From a virus (Duplodnaviria; Heunggongvirae; Uroviricota; Caudoviricetes), in IMG/VR virus record IMGVR_UViG_2802429241_000003: a stretch of 9,751 nucleotides of DNA; one strand, written 5' to 3'. The position numbers and the translations under genes are program-made. Within the stretch, counting starts at the first letter, position 1. Each line of letters starts with the position of its first letter. Shown here one piece after another: positions 1 through 9,751 of this stretch. The notes beneath the pieces are model-generated. The model was not told the origin of the DNA, searched no databases, and was given only the letters and a program-made list of their open reading frames with translations.

Positions 1-69
1 CGCTCGGTTTCGGGTATAACCTTAGGAAATTTTTTCCCACCTGTAAAGCACTTTTTATATAAATCTATA
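1..69. repeat. Terminal redundancy: 1-69 is identical to 9683-9751, consistent with a circular or circularly permuted 9682-bp unit
   Basis: Direct comparison of the first 69 bases (cgctcggtttcgggtataacc...ataaatctata) with the last 69 bases of the window: identical. Confidence 0.9.
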
Positions 70-88
70 ATTATATATTTATAGATTT
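57..88. repeat. AT-rich palindromic repeat AAATCTATAA-N8-TTATAGATTT; contains the reverse complement of the 16-bp unit TTATAGATTTATATAA found beside parA
   Basis: 61-70 aaatctataa is the reverse complement of 79-88 ttatagattt; 55-70 ttatataaatctataa is the reverse complement of ttatagatttatataa at 3818-3833 and 4607-4622. Confidence 0.55.
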
Positions 89-124
89 CCGATATTCCCG
101 GTGCCTACAAATCACCAAAACAGC

Positions 125-139
125 TCAAAATGACACTTT
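125..139. promoter_or_regulatory. 15-bp half-site copy (tcaaaatgacacttt) of the 27-bp palindrome at 9235-9261, immediately after the Q-like gene stop
   Basis: Exact 15-bp identity between 125-139 and 9244-9258; function inferred only from reuse of the motif. Confidence 0.3.
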
Positions 140-516
140 CACTCTCTTCTCTTTTTCAAGTAGTCGACAACATACGTCCTGGCTTTTGCCAGCTTCCGGC
201 GATACTGTCTGAGACTAAGAGAAAGGGCGTGGGCTTTATCAATATGCGGTGCATTTATGTCGAGGCCCCGAATCTCCCACGCCCCGTATTCAATTCGGAC
301 AACCAGCGCCGCAGTCTCATCAACTACCGTGAGGGCCGTCACCGCTCCCTCGATACTGGTTTCCAGTGAGTCATTTGGTGCGCCGCCCCCTCCGGTAAAC
401 TGGCAGCGCGTAACCATCATCATTTCTAACATCGACGCGAAACCGCTACGGGCGTTGCAGCCATTGCGCACCCACAGCGCCCATAGCTCAAACAAGCTAT
501 CCAGATCGCGTCTCAC
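139..516 (-). CDS. Short Q-like late-gene antiterminator candidate (resembles the ~125-aa Q homologues of lambdoid prophages); begins with GTG
   Basis: 125-aa ORF at the distal end of a nin-like operon. The N-terminus (FELWALWVRNG) resembles the LERWGAWAANN-type start I recall for short prophage Q proteins. SD-like GGGAGA sits about 9 nt upstream of the GTG. Family assignment is from memory and unverified. Confidence 0.5.
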   Translation of the reverse strand: MRRDLDSLFELWALWVRNGCNARSGFASMLEMMMVTRCQFTGGGGAPNDSLETSIEGAVTALTVVDETAALVVRIEYGAWEIRGLDINAPHIDKAHALSLSLRQYRRKLAKARTYVVDYLKKRRE

Positions 517-519
517 TGT

Positions 520-852
520 TCAGATCTCCCGTATCGTGACGGGATAAAGCGCCTCTACCTGCTTTTTCTTCATGATGTAGACGTCTGTTCGCACACCTTT
601 AGTGTCGACACAATCAATCGTCCCATCGTCATAAAACACCATGAAATCAAGTTTATAAACGACACCACCAGGCAGATGAAAAGGCACCTGCATAAGAAAC
701 GTCACAACGCGGCCAGCTTTTCTCAGTAGCTTCAGTTCGCAGTAGTAATCAGCCTCTTTTTTGCTATCAAAAGCGATGTCATCGACAACAGTTTTTTTAT
801 TGCCGTATTTGCTTTTCCTGGTCGCTGGTTTGCGAAAGCCGGTATATCTCAT
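520..852 (-). CDS. DUF1064-family phage protein (putative nuclease or Holliday-junction-resolvase-like protein of lambdoid nin regions)
   Basis: 110 aa with KYGNKKT...FDSKKEADYY.ELKLL...YKLDF...VDTKG motifs typical of DUF1064; start overlaps the upstream gene stop (ATGA at 849-852). Confidence 0.65.
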   Translation of the reverse strand: MRYTGFRKPATRKSKYGNKKTVVDDIAFDSKKEADYYCELKLLRKAGRVVTFLMQVPFHLPGGVVYKLDFMVFYDDGTIDCVDTKGVRTDVYIMKKKQVEALYPVTIREI

Positions 853-1253
853 TTGGTATCCCCTGGTACTTCACCAAGACTAAGATCAAACCCAATTTCG
901 TCTTTAACTGACTGCGGCAACAGCTCCCACGTCTGCGCACACAAAAATTCATCTGTGCCATAACGCTCAACAAAGCGAGCACAATTACTCAGGGGAGGGT
1001 GACGAACGGCAATATGCGGAGGCACGCGCCCACCACCAGGCACAACACCGCGATGATGTGGTGCGCACAACCCAAAGCTATGGAAGTGGCAATTCTCATC
1101 AACGCTGCCGTAATCAGGATCGTGATGCAGCTCCGTCCACAGTTCTGGATTCTCAATTTCACGGCCATCAATAATGCAAGCTATGCAACCCACGTGAGTG
1201 AGCACCGCTTGTATATAAAGTTTCTCTTTCTTCGTTGGTGTACGTCCGTTCAT
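849..1253 (-). CDS. Cys/His-rich nin-region protein, possibly a zinc-binding HNH/NinG/YbcO-like nuclease
   Basis: 134-aa ORF with spaced Cys and His pairs (GCIACI, HHD, CHFH, CAPHH) and a position in the operon analogous to ybcO/ninG; 1-nt stop/start overlap with the upstream gene at 1253. Specific family not resolvable by eye. Confidence 0.45.
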   Translation of the reverse strand: MNGRTPTKKEKLYIQAVLTHVGCIACIIDGREIENPELWTELHHDPDYGSVDENCHFHSFGLCAPHHRGVVPGGGRVPPHIAVRHPPLSNCARFVERYGTDEFLCAQTWELLPQSVKDEIGFDLSLGEVPGDTK

Positions 1254-1486
1254 CAGCGCCCCTTACCATTGATAAAGAGGTTGAACTCGTTGATTAACTG
1301 GACATACATGCTTCTGGCCGCGTAGTTCTTTGCCAGCTCTTTACGGGATGAGATCCCGCAAAACTCACGCAGAATCACAGAGGCCTCAGAACTGTTTGAA
1401 ACGTTCTTCCCTGTTTTACTGGTCAGAAAGCGCCAGAATTGGGGATTCTGGCAATGCATCGCAGCACCGCGAACATAACTACTCAT
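1253..1486 (-). CDS. Hypothetical small protein (77 aa) in the nin-like operon
   Basis: ORF with ATGA overlap to the upstream gene (1483-1486) and 1-nt overlap to the downstream gene; no recognisable motif. Confidence 0.45.
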   Translation of the reverse strand: MSSYVRGAAMHCQNPQFWRFLTSKTGKNVSNSSEASVILREFCGISSRKELAKNYAARSMYVQLINEFNLFINGKGR

Positions 1487-1998
1487 TGATGGCCCCCGTC
1501 ATTTCTGGTGCTTTTCACCGTGCGGCTTCTTAAAAACCTGCCATCACGAACAACAGACACTTCTCGTTTACCCAACCTCATTTCACGGCGGTAACATTCA
1601 GAAAATGCCTCGTCCGGCATCATATAAATGCGACGCTTCGCCTCCGTATCCAGAAGGGAACGGCTTGGGGTTACATATAAAAACGACTCATCAATAGAGA
1701 CAAAACCACGAGCAAGAATTGCTGGCAGAATGCCAGGAAGAACGCAGAAAACAGCTCCACGATGCAGCAACATCTGGTACTCCATGACCTCCGTTATCCC
1801 CGTGACTACTGTTACGGTGTCACGTCTGTTACGGCTGGCAACCAGTCGCTGCACACGTCCAATTTTCTGATCTACAGATAGATGTTTGCTATCGTTATCA
1901 ATATGATCGATAACAAATCCTTTAATCGTTTGATCAAGGTAGTGCACCACCTGCGATTGAATCTGGTGATTATCACCAAAGAAGGCCAGAATCATCAT
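1483..1998 (-). CDS. Hypothetical protein (171 aa), second gene of the leftward operon
   Basis: ORF whose ATG overlaps the stop of the Cro-like gene (ATGA at 1995-1998), with GGAGG 9 nt upstream; no confident family assignment. Confidence 0.5.
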   Translation of the reverse strand: MMILAFFGDNHQIQSQVVHYLDQTIKGFVIDHIDNDSKHLSVDQKIGRVQRLVASRNRRDTVTVVTGITEVMEYQMLLHRGAVFCVLPGILPAILARGFVSIDESFLYVTPSRSLLDTEAKRRIYMMPDEAFSECYRREMRLGKREVSVVRDGRFLRSRTVKSTRNDGGHQ

Positions 1999-2489
1999 TC
2001 CTCAAGCCTCCCAAGTGCTGAACGCCGGGCGTTGCTAATCTCCTTATGAATCAGCTCGATATCGCTGGAATCTTTATTCTTAAGCTCCAGCACGGTAATC
2101 GCATCACGAACCTCTGAAACGGTTACGTGTGAGTGTTTCCAGCGAGCAATGAATCGCGGACCGCGTAGATTGCAACGCTCCGCAGGCATCCCCAGCTCAG
2201 AGAAAACCGCTTTCAGCCTTGATAAGCAGTTAACAGGGAGATTCCCTTTGATCTTGTTCTGCCGAACCGATGTGCCATCGCTACGCTGGCGCTGACGTTC
2301 GGCAAAATCTGCCGCCCATTGCTGGACGTTAATCCGGCCTTCCGAATACGCCACCAGCAGCGTCAGGTTATCCGCACGAGGGAATCTCTCGAAGCGATAC
2401 CAGGCACCAATCAGTGATGACGTAAAGCCAAACTTTCTGGCAACACCAATTTGGCCTCCATTTTCGTCAACCCACTCCTGAAAGGTCAT
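1995..2489 (-). CDS. Cro-like HTH protein with a C-terminal extension of about 100 aa (first gene of the leftward early operon)
   Basis: 164-aa ORF divergent from the repressor gene. The N-terminus (GGQIGVARKFGFTSSLIGAWYRF...PRADNLTLL) resembles P22-type Cro/YdaS-like HTH proteins; GGAG sits 9 nt upstream of the ATG at 2489; the C-terminal domain is unassigned. Confidence 0.55.
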   Translation of the reverse strand: MTFQEWVDENGGQIGVARKFGFTSSLIGAWYRFERFPRADNLTLLVAYSEGRINVQQWAADFAERQRQRSDGTSVRQNKIKGNLPVNCLSRLKAVFSELGMPAERCNLRGPRFIARWKHSHVTVSEVRDAITVLELKNKDSSDIELIHKEISNARRSALGRLEE

Positions 2490-2508
2490 TTAACGAACTC
2501 CAGTTAAA

Positions 2509-2626
2509 ACCACGATATGTGGTATTAAAACCACATATCGTGAGTTTTTCAATGGGCGAAACAAAAAATAACCTTCTATTTGTGGTCCACCTCTCGTCTT
2601 ACCATGTGAAAACCACTAAATGTGGT
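2509..2626. promoter_or_regulatory. Immunity-region operators and divergent promoters: ACCAC-N5-GTGGT at 2509-2523, a degenerate copy at 2529-2543, and a third site at 2612-2626
   Basis: Perfect palindromes accacgatatgtggt and accactaaatgtggt plus half-degenerate accacatatcgtgag. On the minus strand a candidate promoter TTGAAA-17-TTTAAT overlaps the 2509-2543 sites; TATAAA at 2631-2636 lies upstream of the repressor start. Confidence 0.6.
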
Positions 2627-2663
2627 AATGTATAAATAACCCACCATTCACGATTGATGAGAC

Positions 2664-3320
2664 ATGAAAAGCAACGACGAGAACATCAAGAAAGAAATAG
2701 GTCTGCGCATTCAGACTCTACGGAAACAATCCGGCATGACTGCCGGAGATCTCCAGCAAGTCACTGGAATAGGCTTAAGCACCTTGCAGAACTATGAGGC
2801 CGGATTAAGACAACCATCTATACCTGCCATCAAGAAAATCGCGCACGCCCTGAAAGCATCAGCGCCTTATATCGCGTGCTTAACAGATAACCCGTTCCCA
2901 CCCCAGAATACTAACGCTCCTGTTATTCCTGGGCTTGTAGCTATAAAAAATGACATAGCATCGCACGCCGGAGAAAAGCCAGTGCTGGCGATAGAACAGG
3001 AGATTCTACGAAGCAAGAACATCAACCCATCGTCTCTGTCAGTTCTCCAGAGCAACGATGAGTTAATGTCACCAACAATATCCCCAGGCTCCCAAGTCCT
3101 GATTAATACAGACGATACAGAGATTCATGAGGGGATCTATGCCCTTGAAGACAGAAATGGCCTGGTTGTTTTGAGGCACTGTAGAGTCATACCGGGTGAC
3201 AATGCTGTTATGCTGTCAACCGAAAGGGATGCTGAAATGAACACTAAGCATCTGAATAACGAGGAATTTAAGCGTTATAAAGTTCTTGGCCGCGTAGTTA
3301 GTGTTGTCAACTGGTTATGA
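2664..3320 (+). CDS. CI-like phage repressor: N-terminal HTH_XRE domain plus C-terminal LexA/S24-peptidase-like domain
   Basis: 218-aa ORF. HTH segment LRKQSGMTAGDLQQVTGIGLSTLQNYEAG; C-terminal segment with M-S-P-T-I-S-P-G-S-QVLIN spacing typical of the S24 fold. Divergent from the cro-like gene across palindromic operators. Confidence 0.8.
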   Translation: MKSNDENIKKEIGLRIQTLRKQSGMTAGDLQQVTGIGLSTLQNYEAGLRQPSIPAIKKIAHALKASAPYIACLTDNPFPPQNTNAPVIPGLVAIKNDIASHAGEKPVLAIEQEILRSKNINPSSLSVLQSNDELMSPTISPGSQVLINTDDTEIHEGIYALEDRNGLVVLRHCRVIPGDNAVMLSTERDAEMNTKHLNNEEFKRYKVLGRVVSVVNWL

Positions 3321-3326
3321 TACACA

Positions 3327-3344
3327 GCACGGCGAAAGCCGTGC
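3327..3344 (+). other. GC-rich hairpin with GAAA tetraloop just after the repressor stop (possible partial terminator or RNA stabiliser)
   Basis: gcacggc-gaaa-gccgtgc, 7-bp stem, followed by a weak U-tract (atttct). Confidence 0.35.
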
Positions 3345-3362
3345 ATTTCTACGCTCAAAAAA

Positions 3363-3377
3363 ACCACATTTTGTGGT
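3363..3377. promoter_or_regulatory. Fourth operator copy (accacattttgtggt) between the repressor gene and the downstream 124-aa gene
   Basis: Perfect ACCAC-N5-GTGGT palindrome; TTGACA at 3382-3387 lies adjacent. Confidence 0.5.
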
Positions 3378-3412
3378 TTTGACAACATGTAAAAGTATAA
3401 AAGAGGCTACGC

Positions 3413-3787
3413 ATGGAATTACATACAGCCAATAAAAACGAAACTCTGATCACTGCTGGAATCGAAATCCAAGCGTTGAACATAGCGATTGAGTGTATGT
3501 TATGCCAAATCATTGATAATGAGAAAGATATCGACTGGATAGAATCTATCCTTCATCTGGCATCAGAACAAAAAGTCTGCCTCAAAACGGCCTTACAATA
3601 CGATGTGCCAGCGGTATCGAAGCTGTGCCAGCCATTGATGGCATATAACAGGGCTATTATTTCTGTATGCCTCATGATTCTCGATGAAAACACCCCTCTT
3701 AGCGACCGCTCAGAAGCTGCTCTAACCCTCTCACGTAAACAGCGACAGCTAGCAAATCAACTGATATCAACGATAGCTGACCTCTGA
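3413..3787 (+). CDS. Hypothetical protein (124 aa) downstream of the repressor
   Basis: ORF with AAGAGG SD 6-7 nt upstream of the ATG and a hairpin terminator after the stop; no recognisable motif. Confidence 0.5.
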   Translation: MELHTANKNETLITAGIEIQALNIAIECMLCQIIDNEKDIDWIESILHLASEQKVCLKTALQYDVPAVSKLCQPLMAYNRAIISVCLMILDENTPLSDRSEAALTLSRKQRQLANQLISTIADL

Positions 3788-3792
3788 CTGCA

Positions 3793-3822
3793 AGCGGGCT
3801 AACGCCCGCTTATATGATTATA
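3793..3822 (+). terminator. Candidate intrinsic terminator after the 124-aa gene
   Basis: Hairpin agcgggc-taac-gcccgct (7-bp stem) followed by an interrupted U-rich tract (ttatatgattat). Confidence 0.45.
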
Positions 3823-3915
3823 GATTTATATAATTATATAAAACACTTTTCATCCGCCAAAAAGTTGGTTATGCTTACCTCATTCTATAAATATAGATTT
3901 ATAGAATTATATAAT
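3811..3915. repeat. Centromere/operator-like AT-rich repeats upstream of parA (two copies of the TTATAGATTTATATAA unit)
   Basis: 3818-3833 ttatagatttatataa; 3892-3915 variant atatagatttatagaattatataa. Same unit recurs at 4607-4622 and, inverted, at 55-70. Confidence 0.5.
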
Positions 3916-3937
3916 CAAACATATGGAGTCTCGACAA

Positions 3938-4591
3938 ATGACTATATCTGTAGGTATTTTCAACGGAAAAGGCGGCGTAACCAAATCAACCATTGCTCGT
4001 GCTTTAGCAGTTGCTTATGCAAAGGCTGGCTGGAATGTATGCCTGATCGATATGGATGTGCTTAACGGAACGGTAACGCGTTGGGTACAACGCAGAATGG
4101 CCAACAATATCGAACCAGCAATCGCGGCGCAGCCGTGCGGCACACCATCACAAGTCCAGAAAATCATCGAATCAGAAGTATACGACCTGGTTATCGTCGA
4201 TGGCGGTGCCTACGCATCTGAATCAGTACCGAAGCTCTCTGAATTTCTGGATATGGTTATTTTGCCAACCAGATTCTCTACCGATGACCTGGAAACCACC
4301 GTTAACACAGCTCACGGCATCGTTAAAAAGGGTGTACCAATCAAGAAAATTTGCATGGTGTTTTCCGGCGCGGCTGAAAACGAAGCTGACTATATTGAAG
4401 CCCAAGAGTACCTGGCTAATACGCCATACTTTGTTGTCGATAAGTACATTCCCCACAAGCCAGCTCTGAGCAAAGCTCAGGATAAGGGCTTAAGCCTCAT
4501 TGAGTGCTCATACGTTGCGCCACGCAAAAAGGCAGACGACGTTATTCAGGGGATTATCAACCAGCTTGAGGCTCTGACTACTGCCGCGTAA
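3938..4591 (+). CDS. parA: ParA/ParF-type partition ATPase (deviant Walker A), type Ib partition system
   Basis: GIFNGKGGVTKST Walker A-like box, LIDMD A'-box, DLVIVDGG Walker B. GGAG sits 9 nt upstream of the ATG at 3938; the track's upstream ATG at 3923 has no SD. Confidence 0.85.
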   Translation: MTISVGIFNGKGGVTKSTIARALAVAYAKAGWNVCLIDMDVLNGTVTRWVQRRMANNIEPAIAAQPCGTPSQVQKIIESEVYDLVIVDGGAYASESVPKLSEFLDMVILPTRFSTDDLETTVNTAHGIVKKGVPIKKICMVFSGAAENEADYIEAQEYLANTPYFVVDKYIPHKPALSKAQDKGLSLIECSYVAPRKKADDVIQGIINQLEALTTAA

Positions 4592-4622
4592 TATATAATT
4601 ATAGTTTTATAGATTTATATAA
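4591..4622. repeat. Repeat copy between parA and the parG-like gene
   Basis: 4607-4622 ttatagatttatataa, identical to the unit at 3818-3833 and followed directly by the parG-like SD. Confidence 0.5.
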
Positions 4623-4634
4623 GAGGTGATACAC

Positions 4635-4883
4635 ATGGCCGCACCATCAAAACCACCAAAGAAGAACAGCAAAGGCGTACCGCCATCGATCGAACAACCG
4701 CAGGTTTTCGACCCGACTGAAACGCCAACCAGAACCAAATCAGGTGGGGCACAAATGGCGTTTAACGTCGACCCTGAATTTAAACGCGAGTACAAAACGT
4801 TCGCCAGCTCAATGGATATGTCATTGAAAGAAGTGCTGACAAAATCTTTTGAGTTACTCAAGGCTCAATACAACCAGAAGTAA
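4635..4883 (+). CDS. Small ParG-like ribbon-helix-helix centromere-binding protein candidate
   Basis: 82 aa immediately downstream of parA; AAGAGGTGA SD 5 nt upstream of the ATG at 4635. The C-terminal segment MAFNVDPEFKREYKTFASSMDMSLKEVLTKSFELL has a beta-strand then two helices like TP228 ParG, with a flexible basic N-terminus. Confidence 0.6.
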   Translation: MAAPSKPPKKNSKGVPPSIEQPQVFDPTETPTRTKSGGAQMAFNVDPEFKREYKTFASSMDMSLKEVLTKSFELLKAQYNQK

Positions 4884-4945: not shown

Positions 4946-5095
4946 ATGTCCGAGCAACAATATACACGGTTACTGAAAACTCGTCTAACCGACCTCAAAC
5001 GGCTGCAAGCTGGTCGCTTATTTGCCCTGCTATCCACCAGGCCAGAATGGGTACGTGAAGCAGTTCTGAAAGGCTTAATGCGCTCCAGCGTTTAA
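4946..5095 (+). CDS. Hypothetical small protein (49 aa)
   Basis: ATG at 4946 with AAGGGGA SD 7 nt upstream; ends just before the hairpin at 5111-5128. Short, no motif. Confidence 0.3.
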   Translation: MSEQQYTRLLKTRLTDLKRLQAGRLFALLSTRPEWVREAVLKGLMRSSV

Positions 5096-5104
5096 ATTCA
5101 ACCA

Positions 5105-5128
5105 TAAAAAAGGCCCCCGAAGGGGCCT
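5105..5128 (-). terminator. Intrinsic terminator for the minus-strand small ORF
   Basis: On the minus strand: hairpin ggcccc-ttcg-ggggcc (7 bp with the flanking A-T pair) followed by TTTTTT (5105-5110); on the plus strand the hairpin lacks a downstream U-tract. Confidence 0.6.
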
Positions 5129-5133
5129 AATCG

Positions 5134-5256
5134 CTACTTGCTGCTAATGTTTATCGTCACATTCAGAGCGTTATCAGTAATCTTCCAACCCTCCCCATGT
5201 GGCGTAAACAAAGCTCCAGTAACAACGATAAAAATACACATACAGTATTTTTTCAT
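5134..5256 (-). CDS. 40-aa small hydrophobic protein, candidate type I toxin (MKKYCMCIFIVVTGALFTPHGEGWKITDNALNVTINISSK)
   Basis: Internal ATG of the 60-aa track ORF with AAGGG SD about 8 nt upstream; hydrophobic N-terminal stretch; strong terminator immediately after the stop; candidate -10 TATAAT (minus strand, 5411-5416) about 150 nt upstream. Confidence 0.35.
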   Translation of the reverse strand: MKKYCMCIFIVVTGALFTPHGEGWKITDNALNVTINISSK

Positions 5257-5320
5257 TGTATGGCCCTTACAGGCCGTTTCACGGCATCCCCACCGACGAA
5301 AATGACGCGAGAGCAAGCAC

Positions 5321-5340
5321 GCTGTTTGTGCCTGCGTGGT
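5321..5340. repeat. Copy A of a 20-bp direct repeat (gctgtttgtgcctgcgtggt); lies in the predicted 5' leader of the small-ORF mRNA, where it is read as its complement
   Basis: 19 of 20 identity with 5570-5589; flanking sequence shows a diverged duplication of about 80 bp (ctgaaag and gcgaatc shared). Confidence 0.6.
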
Positions 5341-5569
5341 ACGGCAAGTGGATAATCCTTTCCTGAAAGTCGGTGCCCGGTTGCGAATCGGCGAAAAGGC
5401 CCCAAGCCATATTATACGTCATCCCCTTCATAATGAAGGAATAAAAAACGCTTTTATTACATAGAATTACACGTAAATAAGTTAAAAACCTTCATTTTGC
5501 ATGAGCTAATGAGCTAAATTTTTTATATGAATAGTGGACTATTCACCTAAATTGGGTAAGAATGTAGTT

Positions 5570-6222: not shown

Positions 6223-6406
6223 TTTTTAGCTCCATATAAAACTCTATCTTTGTTCTCAATTTTAACAAACTGCCCATCTTGGGAATGTGTTGTTCCTTGT
6301 GAGAACTATACATTCCCATTTCTGGTATATCAAGAAAATTAAAAGCTCGGCATTCAAACCCACGCTATGTGGTTGTCTCTGTTAAAATCCCGCCGTATTG
6401 ACATGA

Positions 6407-6505
6407 ATGCGCCATTGGTGGACACTTTCCGAGCCGTAGCAAAATCTACGGTCGGGATTGGCGTCCCGATTGCACAATGGCGCATACCGCGTTAGCGGTT
6501 TTTTT
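6407..6505 (+). ncRNA. Structured element: 11-bp long-range stem enclosing two adjacent 6-bp hairpins, followed at once by an intrinsic terminator; candidate leader/attenuator or small RNA
   Basis: Outer stem 6407-6417 aatgcgccattg pairs with 6475-6485 caatggcgcat; hairpins ccgtag-caaaat-ctacgg and tcggga-ttggcg-tcccga; terminator accgc-gtta-gcggt plus T7 (6486-6505). TTGACA at 6397-6402 lies just upstream. Confidence 0.3.
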
Positions 6506-6607
6506 ATGCGTAAAGCACTGCTACACCCAAATTATGGTGGGGCGTGCGGGGGCGGAGAAATCCGCGCCGGGTTTGTCATTGTGCCGGTTACGCCAACCCT
6601 GTACGTC

Positions 6608-6641
6608 TCACCACCATATTGATTGGCGTCATTGGTGGTGA
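6608..6641. promoter_or_regulatory. Inverted repeat TCACCACCA-N16-TGGTGGTGA in the promoter region of the antirepressor-like operon
   Basis: 9-bp perfect arms at 6608-6616 and 6633-6641; a third ATTGGTGG half-site at 6414-6421; lies 27-60 bp upstream of the ATG at 6668. Confidence 0.4.
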
Positions 6642-6667: not shown

Positions 6668-6859
6668 ATGACAAACCTACCCCATGACTATTACGTCAAC
6701 CTCGTAAAGATCCTTCTCAAGAAAGCCTCATACGCCGATAAATTCCGCCTGGCTGAAATCATAGAGCGCGAAGCTATGCGCATCGCCAGCAACGATAACG
6801 CTGTTTCTGACGCAAAAATCTCCCTCGTAACCAAAGTAGTTATGGGAGGTGCAAAATGA
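6668..6859 (+). CDS. Hypothetical small protein (63 aa), translationally coupled to the downstream antirepressor-like gene
   Basis: ATG at 6668 with GGAGA SD 8 nt upstream; stop TGA overlaps the ATG of the next gene (ATGA at 6856-6859). Confidence 0.45.
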   Translation: MTNLPHDYYVNLVKILLKKASYADKFRLAEIIEREAMRIASNDNAVSDAKISLVTKVVMGGAK

Positions 6860-8124
6860 AAACGCTTCCGACCGTTAACACCCTACAGCCTATCCTGCAT
6901 AACCAAATCCCTGTCATTACTACCGAGTTACTGGCACAGCTTTACGGCGTATCTCCTGTACGCATTCGACAAAATCATCATGAGAATAAGGAACGCTTCA
7001 TTGAAGGTAAGCACTACTTCAAAATTGAAGGTAACGAACTTCGAGAGTTAAAGCACAAAGTGACTCAAGATAATGATGTGAAGAACAAAAACTCTTTAAG
7101 AGATTCAGTTAATGACGCCCCCTCTAAAAGAGAGAGCGTCGAGCACAGAGTAGTTTTAAACTACTCTGTTAACCACAAGGTAACTAAAAGTCACTCTGTG
7201 AAAATCGCCCGTAACGTTCGCTCCCTCATTCTCTGGACAGAACGCGGGGCTGCACGTCACGCTAAAATGCTCGAAACTAACCAAGCGTGGGATGTGTTCG
7301 AACGGCTGGAAGACTGCTACTTCAACCAGAACGCGCAAACGGCCGCGACCGTTACCGTCTCGCCAAACAATGCTCGTGAGGTTGTCGATACGCTCAACGC
7401 CAAACCGATGTTTTACATTAAGGTGTGCAACAACGAGCCACTCACAACCTCAGCCGATGTTGCCCAGGCATTCAGCACCACAAACAATTCCATCGTTATG
7501 GCCATCGATGCGCTACGCATTCCTCGCACGGCTGCGGCACGTCATTTCTTTAAAGAGCAACGACCGCTGGAAGGAAGCGACCGCGAAATAACAATCTATC
7601 GCATGACAAAAGACGGATTTACCTTGCTCATGGAAAGTATCGACGGTCCAGGCGTGAAGGATATCAAGCTGGCCTACATTGAAGCCTTTAACGCTATCAG
7701 CAGCGTGTTAAAAACACAGTACGAGCGCGATCTGGCTAAACGACTGTACCAGGAAAAAACGATTATCCGCGCGGCAACAGAGCATAATCGGCTATTAACG
7801 GAACCGAACTACAGGAAGGAACTAATCAAGGAGTTTGACAAGGCAACAGGGAAAACCAAAGCGACGCTAAATCTGCCAGCAATGACTCAGGAAAATGTGA
7901 TATCAGCCTTACTTCTTGATCTGCTCAGAAACGCCAGAGCACTTATCAGCTTTGACGAAAACCTGAATCCTCAGCTCAAGCTACTACCACCGACAGGCAA
8001 AGTAGTCGACCAAGCTGATCACAACAGCATACTCAGCGTTCTGGATGCAAACCTGCCAGCCAGGACACTACAGGATCTGATAAAAACATGTGCTGATAAG
8101 CTGGCACAGAAAAGCAGACCATAA
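6856..8124 (+). CDS. Antirepressor-like phage regulatory protein: N-terminal ORF6N-like domain, central Rha-like domain, unassigned C-terminal region
   Basis: 422 aa. N-terminal ITTELLAQLYGVSPVRIRQNHHENKERF...ILWTERGAARHAKMLETNQAWDVFERLEDCYF resembles ORF6N; central RMTKDGFTLLMESIDGPGVKDIKLAYIEAFNAI resembles the Rha family (TRDGF..L.M.F.G.....K..YI.AFN). Strong GGGAGG SD 6 nt upstream. Confidence 0.75.
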   Translation: MKTLPTVNTLQPILHNQIPVITTELLAQLYGVSPVRIRQNHHENKERFIEGKHYFKIEGNELRELKHKVTQDNDVKNKNSLRDSVNDAPSKRESVEHRVVLNYSVNHKVTKSHSVKIARNVRSLILWTERGAARHAKMLETNQAWDVFERLEDCYFNQNAQTAATVTVSPNNAREVVDTLNAKPMFYIKVCNNEPLTTSADVAQAFSTTNNSIVMAIDALRIPRTAAARHFFKEQRPLEGSDREITIYRMTKDGFTLLMESIDGPGVKDIKLAYIEAFNAISSVLKTQYERDLAKRLYQEKTIIRAATEHNRLLTEPNYRKELIKEFDKATGKTKATLNLPAMTQENVISALLLDLLRNARALISFDENLNPQLKLLPPTGKVVDQADHNSILSVLDANLPARTLQDLIKTCADKLAQKSRP

Positions 8125-9269: not shown

Positions 9270-9650
9270 TTACTTAACGAGGAATAAAAATGGTTTATTG
9301 TTCGGCGGTGTAATCGGGGCTGGCTCGCTTTTGCTCATGCGATCAGTGTACCAGGCCAACTCCTTGTCAAAGTAAGCCTGATTAAAATAGGCCATGAATG
9401 TAGTTTCAAATCCATAACGACCGCTAATACGCAGCATCTGATTGCCGTTCTCTGTTTCCAGATATACCTGGGCACGTTCCTGATTCTCCTTCAGCCAGGT
9501 TAAAGCCTCATCGCATGAGGACACACGATACTCATCATCGTAGCAGTCATCGATGCGGCTTGAGGAAGAACGGCAAATCACGCCAACAGAACCAGCCAGG
9601 ATAGTTTGAATTTTAAGGAAAGCGTTTTTGCGGATTTTAATCATGCTCAT
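9270..9650 (-). CDS. Hypothetical protein (126 aa), first gene of the two-gene cassette
   Basis: ATG at 9650 with GGAGA SD 8 nt upstream; no recognisable motif; followed by the palindrome and the HTH gene. Confidence 0.5.
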   Translation of the reverse strand: MSMIKIRKNAFLKIQTILAGSVGVICRSSSSRIDDCYDDEYRVSSCDEALTWLKENQERAQVYLETENGNQMLRISGRYGFETTFMAYFNQAYFDKELAWYTDRMSKSEPAPITPPNNKPFLFLVK

Positions 9651-9682
9651 CGGGTTATCTCCGGTTTAACCAGAGCGGGTAT

Positions 9683-9751
9683 CGCTCGGTTTCGGGTATA
9701 ACCTTAGGAAATTTTTTCCCACCTGTAAAGCACTTTTTATATAAATCTATA
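9683..9751. repeat. Second copy of the terminal redundancy (identical to 1-69)
   Basis: Base-by-base identity with 1-69. Confidence 0.9.

Follow-up and report, generated by a model that had tools for sequence, protein, structure and literature searches.

Dispersed 8-bp repeat arrays as candidate sites of a type Ib-like partition protein in an enterobacterial phage-plasmid family

Overview

We analyzed the partition (par) cassette and the associated repeats in a 9,751-nucleotide stretch of a Caudoviricetes genome, IMG/VR virus record IMGVR_UViG_2802429241_000003 (hereafter, the window, that is, the entire stretch). Here we show that the window carries four arrays of an 8-bp unit in strict register, three at the par operon and one distant from it; that, in related replicons, such arrays occupy conserved positions both at par and elsewhere; and that the unit differs between lineages, with the proximal and distal arrays of each replicon changing together. 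These arrays are likely to be the binding sites of the small predicted ribbon-helix-helix (RHH) protein encoded after parA, a putative type Ib centromere-binding protein that probably serves also as a replicon-wide regulator. Overall, the best reading of the arrays seems to be a type Ib centromere and operator network, by analogy with omega of pSM19035, KorB of RK2 and Sop of N15.

Repeat unit and arrays in the window

The sequence-only reading of the window described a 16-bp AT-rich unit at four to five dispersed sites. This 16-mer, TTATAGATTTATATAA, is indeed non-random: it occurs exactly at 3818-3833 (+), 4607-4622 (+) and 55-70 (-), and with up to three mismatches allowed, there are 10 matches in the window compared to 0.10 expected, a number reached in none of 200 dinucleotide shuffles. 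The true unit is only 8 bp long, TTATAGAT/TTATATAA, given that copies within one site, identified with a repeat finder, are offset by exactly 8 bp. The degenerate copies, for which a motif search had been suggested, resolve into exactly four arrays, each of 32 bp (4 x 8 bp), in perfect register. Arrays were defined as at least three phased units with no more than one mismatch per unit; this criterion replaced a 14-mer matrix (150 bp upstream of parA), which cross-matched AT-rich background and conserved sequence outside the arrays. Phased units yielded the four arrays in the window and none in 20 dinucleotide shuffles, and no phased arrays beyond these four were detected in the window.

Three of the arrays are located at the par operon, namely, S2 (array A; 3810-3841, +; TTATATGA TTATAGAT TTATATAA TTATATAA), S3 (array B; 3883-3914, +; TTCTATAA ATATAGAT TTATAGAA TTATATAA), which is the variant copy previously spotted at 3892-3915, and S4 (array C; 4591-4622, +; ATATATAA TTATAGTT TTATAGAT TTATATAA). 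The distal array S1 (55-86, -), which reads TTATATAA ATCTATAA TTATATAT TTATAGAT on the plus strand, lies just upstream of a leftward promoter within a repeated cassette (see below). The inverted copy reported within a palindrome at 55-88 is present in S1, where ATCTATAA at 63-70 faces TTATAGAT at 79-86. The fifth proposed site, at 9737-9751, is merely part of a 69-bp terminal overlap (1-69 = 9683-9751) and not a separate site. The units of this Escherichia coli lineage are nearly pure A/T and contain -10-like hexamers.

The par operon

The par operon consists, in order, of a hairpin, array A, a promoter, array B, parA, array C and the small gene. The GC-rich hairpin (3793..3810, +; AGCGGGC-TAAC-GCCCGCT) follows a gene for a 124-aa protein and abuts S2, and this succession of hairpin and array upstream of parA is found in most lineages. 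The predicted par promoter (3847..3875, +), with a -35 box TTTTCA (3847-3852), a 17-nt spacer and a -10 box TATGCT (3870-3875), was not called in a strict consensus scan and was placed by alignment with the corresponding regions of Salmonella (TTCCAA-17-TATCAT) and of locus L096 (TTCCAA-17-TATGAT). S2 ends 5 bp upstream of this putative -35 box, the same geometry as in the repeated cassette, and an array at the S2 position is retained in all lineages compared. S3 extends from about +1 of the predicted promoter to just before the ribosome-binding site (RBS) of parA, and S4 takes up the interval that separates the parA stop codon (4589-4591) from the RBS of the small gene. The previously noticed repeats upstream of parA and between parA and the small gene, accordingly, consist of S2 and S3, which bracket the putative par promoter, and S4 in the intergenic gap. 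Equivalents of S4 are present in the Salmonella, Serratia (L005), L104-109, L112-115, L118 and L125 lineages. Apart from the arrays, neither the repeat finder nor the comparison of locus layouts revealed any repeats at the par operon.

The parA gene (3938..4591, +; WP_000156167.1) encodes a partition ATPase of the Walker type, in which residues 11-17 form the deviant Walker A motif KGGVTKS. At 217 aa, this protein falls within the size range of small type Ib ParA proteins (about 200-220 aa) and, like these, lacks an N-terminal helix-turn-helix (HTH) domain. It matches the Pfam families CbiA/ParA/MipZ, the ParA-like PHROG 164 (9e-39) and, weakly, the Protein Data Bank (PDB) structure of ParF of TP228 (4dzz, 3e-4). 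The match to NCBIfam ParA_partition (4e-22, 78.6 bits) falls below the curated cut-off of 180, so this ParA is a divergent member. The parA leader (window 3923-3940), GGAGTCTCGACAAATG, is nearly the same as GGACGCCTCGACAATG, the leader of an unrelated array-following gene in the plasmid of E. coli ATCC 25922 (L003, 27147-27162), and this shared translation-initiation leader is conserved in Serratia (L005 38092-38107) and in many IMG/VR relatives.

Directly downstream of the small gene is a 49-aa open reading frame (ORF; 4946-5095, +) with a weak match to PHROG 22022. Its identity to the homologs from Serratia, L097 and L100 is 53-77%, compared to about 54% for ParA and about 40% for the RHH protein, and it may be the third gene of the par operon.

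The small ribbon-helix-helix protein

The small gene (4635..4883, +) encodes an 82-aa protein, the candidate centromere-binding protein, with a disordered, basic N-terminal tail (MAAPSKPPKKNSKGVPP...) and a predicted C-terminal RHH domain. Searches of Pfam, NCBIfam and PDB sequences returned no direct match for this protein, which falls in PHROG 6024, a family of unknown function. An exhaustive HMMER search identified a family of relatives of about 75-90 aa, with a basic, proline-rich tail (MAxxxKPPKKxxKGxPP) and the C-terminal pattern LNFKVxxEFxREFKxFAxxxDMSMxELLxxxFELYK; of 48 family members, 16 showed weak similarity to the Pfam domain RHH_10 and 10 to Antitox_RHH. In the AlphaFold2 model, residues 1-40 are disordered and followed by an extended segment (41-46) and two helices (47-59 and 64-80), with a predicted local distance difference test score of around 90. 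The best Foldseek matches of the model are RHH proteins, including ParG, CopG, AmrZ and Arc, with target TM-scores of 0.7-0.87 over about 42 residues. The protein is, therefore, predicted to adopt an RHH fold preceded by a basic N-terminal tail, similarly to ParG and omega.

The succession of a 217-aa Walker ParA and a small protein, disordered and basic in its tail and predicted to adopt an RHH fold, agrees with the type Ib-like partition cassette recognized in the sequence-only reading. The designation of the small gene as ParG-like holds for the predicted fold and gene organization, and fails at the sequence level, where a profile of the 48 relatives compared with ParG (1p94) gave E = 1. 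Judging by the model, the 82-aa protein looks like a type Ib centromere-binding protein that is not a member of the ParG family by sequence.

Arrays across the replicon and the repeated promoter cassette

The window closes into a 9,682-bp 'circle' that is 97-98% identical to a contiguous segment of non-mobilizable plasmids of about 46-52 kb from E. coli, Escherichia albertii and Escherichia fergusonii, including the plasmid of E. coli ATCC 25922 (97% identity). Three Yersinia phages, vB_YpM_39, 41 and 44, are matched as well. A myovirus-type virion module and lysis genes are found in the complete records together with genes for an IncFII-like RepA, a RelE/ParE toxin-antitoxin pair and a CI-like repressor and with the par cassette; these replicons, therefore, are phage-plasmids. 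The element was detected in 74 of the 5,426 complete E. coli genomes, with 218 of the 221 matched places located on plasmids.

In the ATCC 25922 plasmid (L003), there are eight arrays in all: three at par (at 21357, 22065 and 22138), of which two precede parA and one separates it from the small gene, and five distal ones, dispersed over about 16 kb and located at other operons too. What had been perceived as a single, unusual distal copy is hence one of five distal arrays in a replicon-wide set that is conserved across the family. Three of these (at 16204, 25898 and 32528) belong to cassettes (16204-16330, 25898-26020 and 32528-32650) that consist of an array, a promoter, a conserved leader, an RBS and the ATG; the array at 27115 is separated by 13 bp from the start codon of the gene that follows, and that at 31392 is intergenic, preceding a gene for an MT-A70 methyltransferase. 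The counterparts of S1 (L001 4055-4086, L003 25898-25929) lie upstream of a DUF3560 gene.

Nine copies of the cassette, taken from E. coli, Salmonella and Serratia and aligned, have a fixed design, in which 3-4 array units are followed by a 7-bp gap, a -35 box, a 17-nt spacer that contains a palindrome, a -10 box, leader, RBS and ATG. The boxes themselves vary (-35: TTTACA, TTGCAG, TTGATG; -10: TAAGGT, TATGGT, TAATAT), with the spacing unchanged in all nine copies. In the window, the predicted cassette promoter occupies 19..47 (-), with -35 TTTACA at 47..42, the 17-nt spacer and -10 TAAGGT at 24..19. Because of the weak -10 box, it was not called in the strict consensus scan, so its assignment rests on cross-lineage conservation. 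Among the options raised for a distal copy, an operator coupling partition to another promoter appears to fit best, S1 ending 7 bp upstream of this -35 box; a second centromere is possible too. The option of an origin-proximal site was rejected because the window does not include repA and, in the complete plasmid, more than 2 kb separate this gene from the closest array.

The palindrome GGAAA-N3-TTTCC in the spacer between the -35 and -10 boxes (spacer at window 25-41, -) has three exact copies in L003 (25947-25959, 32577-32589, 14648-14660) compared to 0.07 expected, and in the Serratia cassettes, a different palindrome, TAGGAC-N5-GTCCTA, is found in the same place. This palindrome may be the site of a second regulator; its position recalls the activator sites near -20 of P1 late promoters. 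The cassette leader, of about 45 nt, is conserved and is followed by the RBS AAACCGGAGA and the ATG. Just before the RBS, it can fold into a hairpin in which two pairs covary (AACC...GGTT in the E. coli and Salmonella copies, GGCC...GGCC in those of Serratia). Copies of the cassette within one plasmid are more alike than orthologous copies from different lineages, which suggests concerted evolution.

Lineage-specific units in conserved positions

Relatives were collected from PLSDB (Salmonella plasmid L004 and Serratia plasmids L005 and L167) and, through alignment of ParA, from IMG/VR, with ParA identities from 96% down to about 35%; a contig profile search with the ParA alignment added only generic Walker ATPases (25-59% identity over short segments). 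The par layout is retained in about 25 loci, often including array C, with the 8-bp period throughout and a unit that differs among about eight related lineages: TTATAGAT / TTATATAA in E. coli and Salmonella; AATCTTTA / TTAAATAA, also given as TTAAAGAT/TTAAATAA, in the Serratia type; GATATAAA in L097-L102; TAACGCTA / TAACGCAA in L104-109 and L125; TTCTTTAT in L112-116; and TTAGCTAA / TTCGCTAA in L118.

In every lineage examined, the replicon's own unit recurs in 2-6 distal arrays within 10 kb on either side; the GC-containing units recur distally as well, and in those lineages, chance matches are negligible. By the phased-unit criterion, the E. coli units form 7 arrays in the E. coli and Salmonella plasmids and none in Serratia, and the Serratia units form 5 arrays in L005, where both the cassettes and the gene with the leader ggacgYctcgacaATG are accompanied by Serratia-type arrays. 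At the position equivalent to S1, after the gene for a 125-aa protein, at least 11 loci, which between them use five different units, have an array of their own unit, and in the lineages with GC-containing units, distal arrays directly precede ribosome-binding sites. This combination of conserved position with diverged but internally matched units is the signature of cis-sites that are read by a co-evolving trans-acting factor.

The identity of this putative factor can be addressed through cases where the early genes have dissimilar affinities. In locus L103, the arrays, both those at par and five distal ones, are of the Serratia type, and the nearest relatives of its RHH protein (51-64% identity) and ParA (56-60%) are found in the Serratia group, whereas its 125-aa protein is nearer to the E. 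coli type (54-57%) than to that of Serratia (42-48%), as is its 171-aa protein, and its CI is equidistant. Furthermore, L097 and L100 have a common unit and different types of RepA (30% and 59% identity to the E. coli RepA). The RHH fold reads bases through its beta-strand, and across the family, this strand varies with the unit (QM[A/S]FNV, MNFNV in Serratia, LLL[R/Q]L, LNFRV, FNKRL, LGFKV), with Arg or Lys appearing where the units contain G or C. These comparisons point to the unit type tracking the par cassette and the RHH beta-strand rather than RepA, CI or the 125-aa gene.

Putative functions of the arrays

Any type Ib system requires a centromere, and at par, there are no repeats other than the arrays, which makes them the candidates for this role. 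By analogy with ParG and omega, each 8-bp unit would be read by one RHH dimer via the beta-strand, and four dimers would cooperatively coat a 32-bp array. Binding to S2 and S3, which bracket the predicted par promoter, would result in autorepression, and S4 may throttle expression of the RHH gene itself. The protein-coated arrays would form the centromere, presenting the N-terminal tails to ParA as partition complexes that the distal arrays would enlarge. The distal arrays are located next to -35 boxes or ribosome-binding sites within a long transcription unit that runs leftward from early to late genes, and they would also allow the partition protein to block these operons; such a regulator would most probably act as a repressor or roadblock of the delayed-early and late operons in the plasmid-prophage state.

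A broader proposal, which we put forward tentatively and consider plausible but short of probable, is that, in this family of enterobacterial and environmental phage-plasmids, the type Ib RHH protein is a master regulator, with co-evolving arrays gating the delayed-early and late phage operons. The array positions that such a regulator might use, a suggestion that is similarly tentative, are the par promoter, the end of the early operon, the three-copy promoter and untranslated region (UTR) cassette, and individual gene starts. If true, this would amount to a built-in link between stable plasmid partition and the maintenance of lysogeny. The type Ia Sop system of N15 is, to our knowledge, the sole precedent for the coordination of plasmid maintenance with the lysis-lysogeny decision in phage-plasmids.

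Throughout the early and lytic region, promoters and gene starts appear to be wired to the candidate binding arrays of a minimal type Ib system. The interest of this network lies mainly in its conservation across the family; its existence is not categorically surprising. With the positions of the wiring conserved and the recognition code lineage-specific, the family offers natural orthogonal protein-DNA pairs for studying the rules of RHH recognition, and experiments are feasible given that the element is common, being present in the quality-control strain ATCC 25922 and as infective Yersinia phages.

Alternative explanations

The 125-aa protein (139-516, -) shows a weak match to the NCBIfam PA0613 family, and its gene is the last one in the early leftward operon, just upstream of S1; that it functions as an antiterminator or activator is only a guess. 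An alternative to binding by the RHH protein, which we consider unlikely, is that the arrays are operators of another lineage-specific phage regulator, either this protein or the 124-aa protein, that also controls par; it is about equally improbable that, as this alternative implies, the partition protein binds elsewhere or only to a subset of the arrays. The recurrence of own-unit arrays after the 125-aa gene in at least 11 loci would be compatible with such a regulator, as would the synteny of the 125-aa and 124-aa genes in E. coli, Salmonella and Serratia and the cassette geometry, an array upstream of the -35 box combined with a weak -10 box, which is typical of activators. This explanation is hard to reconcile with L103, where Serratia-type arrays coexist with a 125-aa protein that is nearer to the E. 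coli type, and with the apparent confinement of the 124-aa protein, which BLAST failed to detect outside a close E. coli and Salmonella group, given that the arrays persist elsewhere. In addition, there is no alternative repeat near par that could be the centromere, the beta-strand of the RHH protein tracks the unit, and 8-bp phased arrays of mixed orientation are a known signature of RHH partition proteins (PMC3130281).

Under another improbable scenario, the distal arrays are bound by the RHH protein and function solely as extra centromeres, multiple loading sites strengthening segregation as with the dispersed sop sites of N15, without regulatory effect and with an intergenic placement that reflects where insertions are tolerated. 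The 3-4 units per array match the minimum of four contiguous repeats for activation of ParA of pSM19035 (PMC9499535). Spreading along DNA is not known for RHH partition proteins (an unpublished observation of the authors of PMC9499535), and without it, several arrays would presumably load more protein; arrays without an evident promoter, such as S4 and that at L003 27115 (13 bp before an ATG), also fit this scenario. It would leave unexplained the fixed distance of 5-7 bp between array and -35 box at the par and cassette promoters across lineages as well as the arrays immediately before ribosome-binding sites in the lineages with GC-containing units, and known RHH systems use the same sites as centromere and operator (PMC3130281, PMC9499535). 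The least credible option, to which we assign very little weight, is that the repeats are not specific protein-binding sites at all, being instead AT-rich promoter or UP-element sequence, curved DNA, RepA iterons, or recombination scars at module boundaries. The nearly pure A/T composition of the E. coli units, with their -10-like hexamers, lends itself to such an explanation, as does the cassette of about 120 bp, which is clearly either recombinogenic or collapsed in assemblies, the pseudo-circle of the window closing through it. In other lineages, however, GC-containing units (TAACGCTA, TTAGCTAA) occupy the same architecture; a period of 8 bp disagrees with the helical repeat that curved DNA would be expected to show; repA has no array in its vicinity, and the type of RepA dissociates from that of the unit, for which reason we rejected the iteron possibility; and the strict matching of proximal and distal units within replicons implies a common trans-acting reader.

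Several considerations weigh against assigning the arrays to the RHH protein as a partition factor and regulator. We infer binding entirely, and likewise its stoichiometry, the direction of regulation and centromere activity. Most proteins of the early region diverge in parallel, so that the covariation specific to the RHH protein rests on L103 and on the comparison of L097 with L100. No natural par swap, that is, the same backbone with a different or absent par, was found among the PLSDB plasmids, in which the backbone and the par cassette are co-inherited. The three cassette arrays are paralogous copies rather than independent events. Finally, the location of the cassette array upstream of the -35 box, together with the weak -10 box, suits an activator as well, so that activation is conceivable in place of repression.

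Relation to known partition systems

Ravin, Rech and Lane are said to have found, in 2008, that the centromere sites of the N15 Sop system are dispersed through that phage-plasmid and influence late gene expression. The dispersal of candidate centromere-type sites near phage operons in the element described here is similar, whereas the N15 system is of type Ia, with SopB, a large HTH protein of the ParB family, palindromic sopC-type sites, a linear replicon and a different phage backbone. Instead of an HTH protein of the ParB family and a large ParA with an N-terminal regulatory domain, the cassette analyzed here encodes an 82-aa predicted RHH protein and a 217-aa ParA.

The ParF/ParG system of TP228 shares with this cassette the small Walker ParA followed by a protein of about 76-82 aa in which a flexible N-terminal tail precedes a C-terminal RHH domain (predicted, in our case). 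ParG binds tetramer boxes separated by 4-bp spacers, with an 8-bp period and mixed orientation, one dimer per box, at sites that are both centromere and operator (PMC3130281). The mixed-orientation arrays of short boxes in parH/OF have the same 8-bp period (a 4-bp box and a 4-bp AT-rich spacer), and, in both systems, arrays are located upstream of the operon, those of TP228 acting as centromere and operator (PMC3130281). The systems differ in that there is no significant sequence similarity to ParG (E = 1); the TP228 box is ACTC, as opposed to TTATAGAT/TTATATAA; TP228 has 8 + 12 units clustered upstream of par, in contrast to the 4-unit arrays dispersed over about 16 kb here; and, in our case, one array is located between the two par genes.

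In pSM19035, omega arrays cover several promoters, and at least four contiguous repeats are required to activate ParA (PMC9499535). Omega, too, is an RHH partition protein (a fold that is only predicted for the 82-aa protein), and its arrays overlap the copS, delta and omega promoters, making it a global regulator; the presence of the same arrays at several promoters is observed here as well, with three in the promoter cassettes of L003 and two at its par promoter. In both cases, repeats are direct and inverted, and the minimum of four contiguous repeats (PMC9499535) compares with four units per array in the window. The differences include 7-bp WATCACW heptads in arrays of 7-10 as opposed to 8-bp units in arrays of 3-4, a Firmicute inc18 plasmid as opposed to an enterobacterial phage-plasmid, and copy-number and toxin-antitoxin targets as opposed to candidate phage operons; no sequence homology between omega and the proteins analyzed here was detected. 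KorB of the IncP-1 plasmid RK2 is a partition protein and a global transcriptional regulator that acts via operators around the replicon (PMC11790492, PMC5577506), which is the concept suggested here for a candidate replicon-wide regulator with scattered sites, but it is a ParB-CTPase sliding clamp with an HTH domain that acts at long range with KorA, not an RHH protein, and has no short phased arrays.

By analogy, the putative working principle of the arrays is closest to those of omega and ParG, their biological setting to that of N15 Sop, and the concept resembles that of KorB. The system differs from each of these in protein family or sequence, in the length and sequence of the unit and in the size of the arrays, and also because it is a type Ib RHH system inside a phage-plasmid regulon.

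The ends of the window and the host element

The window had been taken to close at a circular junction. In complete plasmids, its two ends correspond to two different copies of the cassette of about 120 bp, located about 9.6 kb apart upstream of different genes (L001 ~3985-4080 and ~13545-13645), and the complete plasmid L003 contains a third copy. A segment flanked by the same repeat yields a short-read contig with identical ends, and the window also lacks repA, so the 'junction' of the 9.7-kb circle most likely results from two cassette copies having been collapsed in assembly. If so, S1 natively precedes the DUF3560 gene rather than the gene for a 126-aa protein at 9270-9650. In the window, the 5' UTR of the first cassette starts at 1..18 (-) and continues across the pseudo-junction into 9651-9682; the second cassette copy (9651..9751, -) contributes the UTR and RBS upstream of the 126-aa gene and includes the 69-bp overlap at 9683-9751. 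The three-copy cassette explains the pseudo-circular contigs obtained for this element in short-read assemblies, and the median matched E. coli genome has three cassette places.

In the literature searched, we found no description of a partition system for this group of phage-plasmids of about 48 kb. The plasmid pSLy3 was considered as a representative of this element and ruled out because it belongs to the SSU5 supergroup; for phage vB_YpM_HQ103, described as a 'plasmid-like pseudolysogen', no link to this family could be established from the published text.

Other regulatory features of the window

Palindromes of the form ACCAC-N5-GTGGT are located at 2509-2523, 2612-2626, 3363-3377 and 6359-6373, four compared to 0.18 expected. 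They flank the gene for the CI-like repressor (2664-3320) and are also found upstream of the antirepressor region; these are probably CI operators, which would constitute a regulon of their own, distinct from that of the arrays. A full-length match to the Rfam family ryfA (5106-5404, -; 136 bits, with a gathering score of 80) is located downstream of the par operon. An ORF6N/Rha antirepressor gene (6856-8124, +) is closely preceded by matches to Rfam isrK (6433-6505, +; 67 bits) and C4 antisense RNA (6530-6618, +; 72 bits), an arrangement resembling the antisense-controlled immI module of P1 and P7. The stretch comprising isrK, C4 and the antirepressor gene is the only part of the window with about 80% identity to Stx-converting phages.

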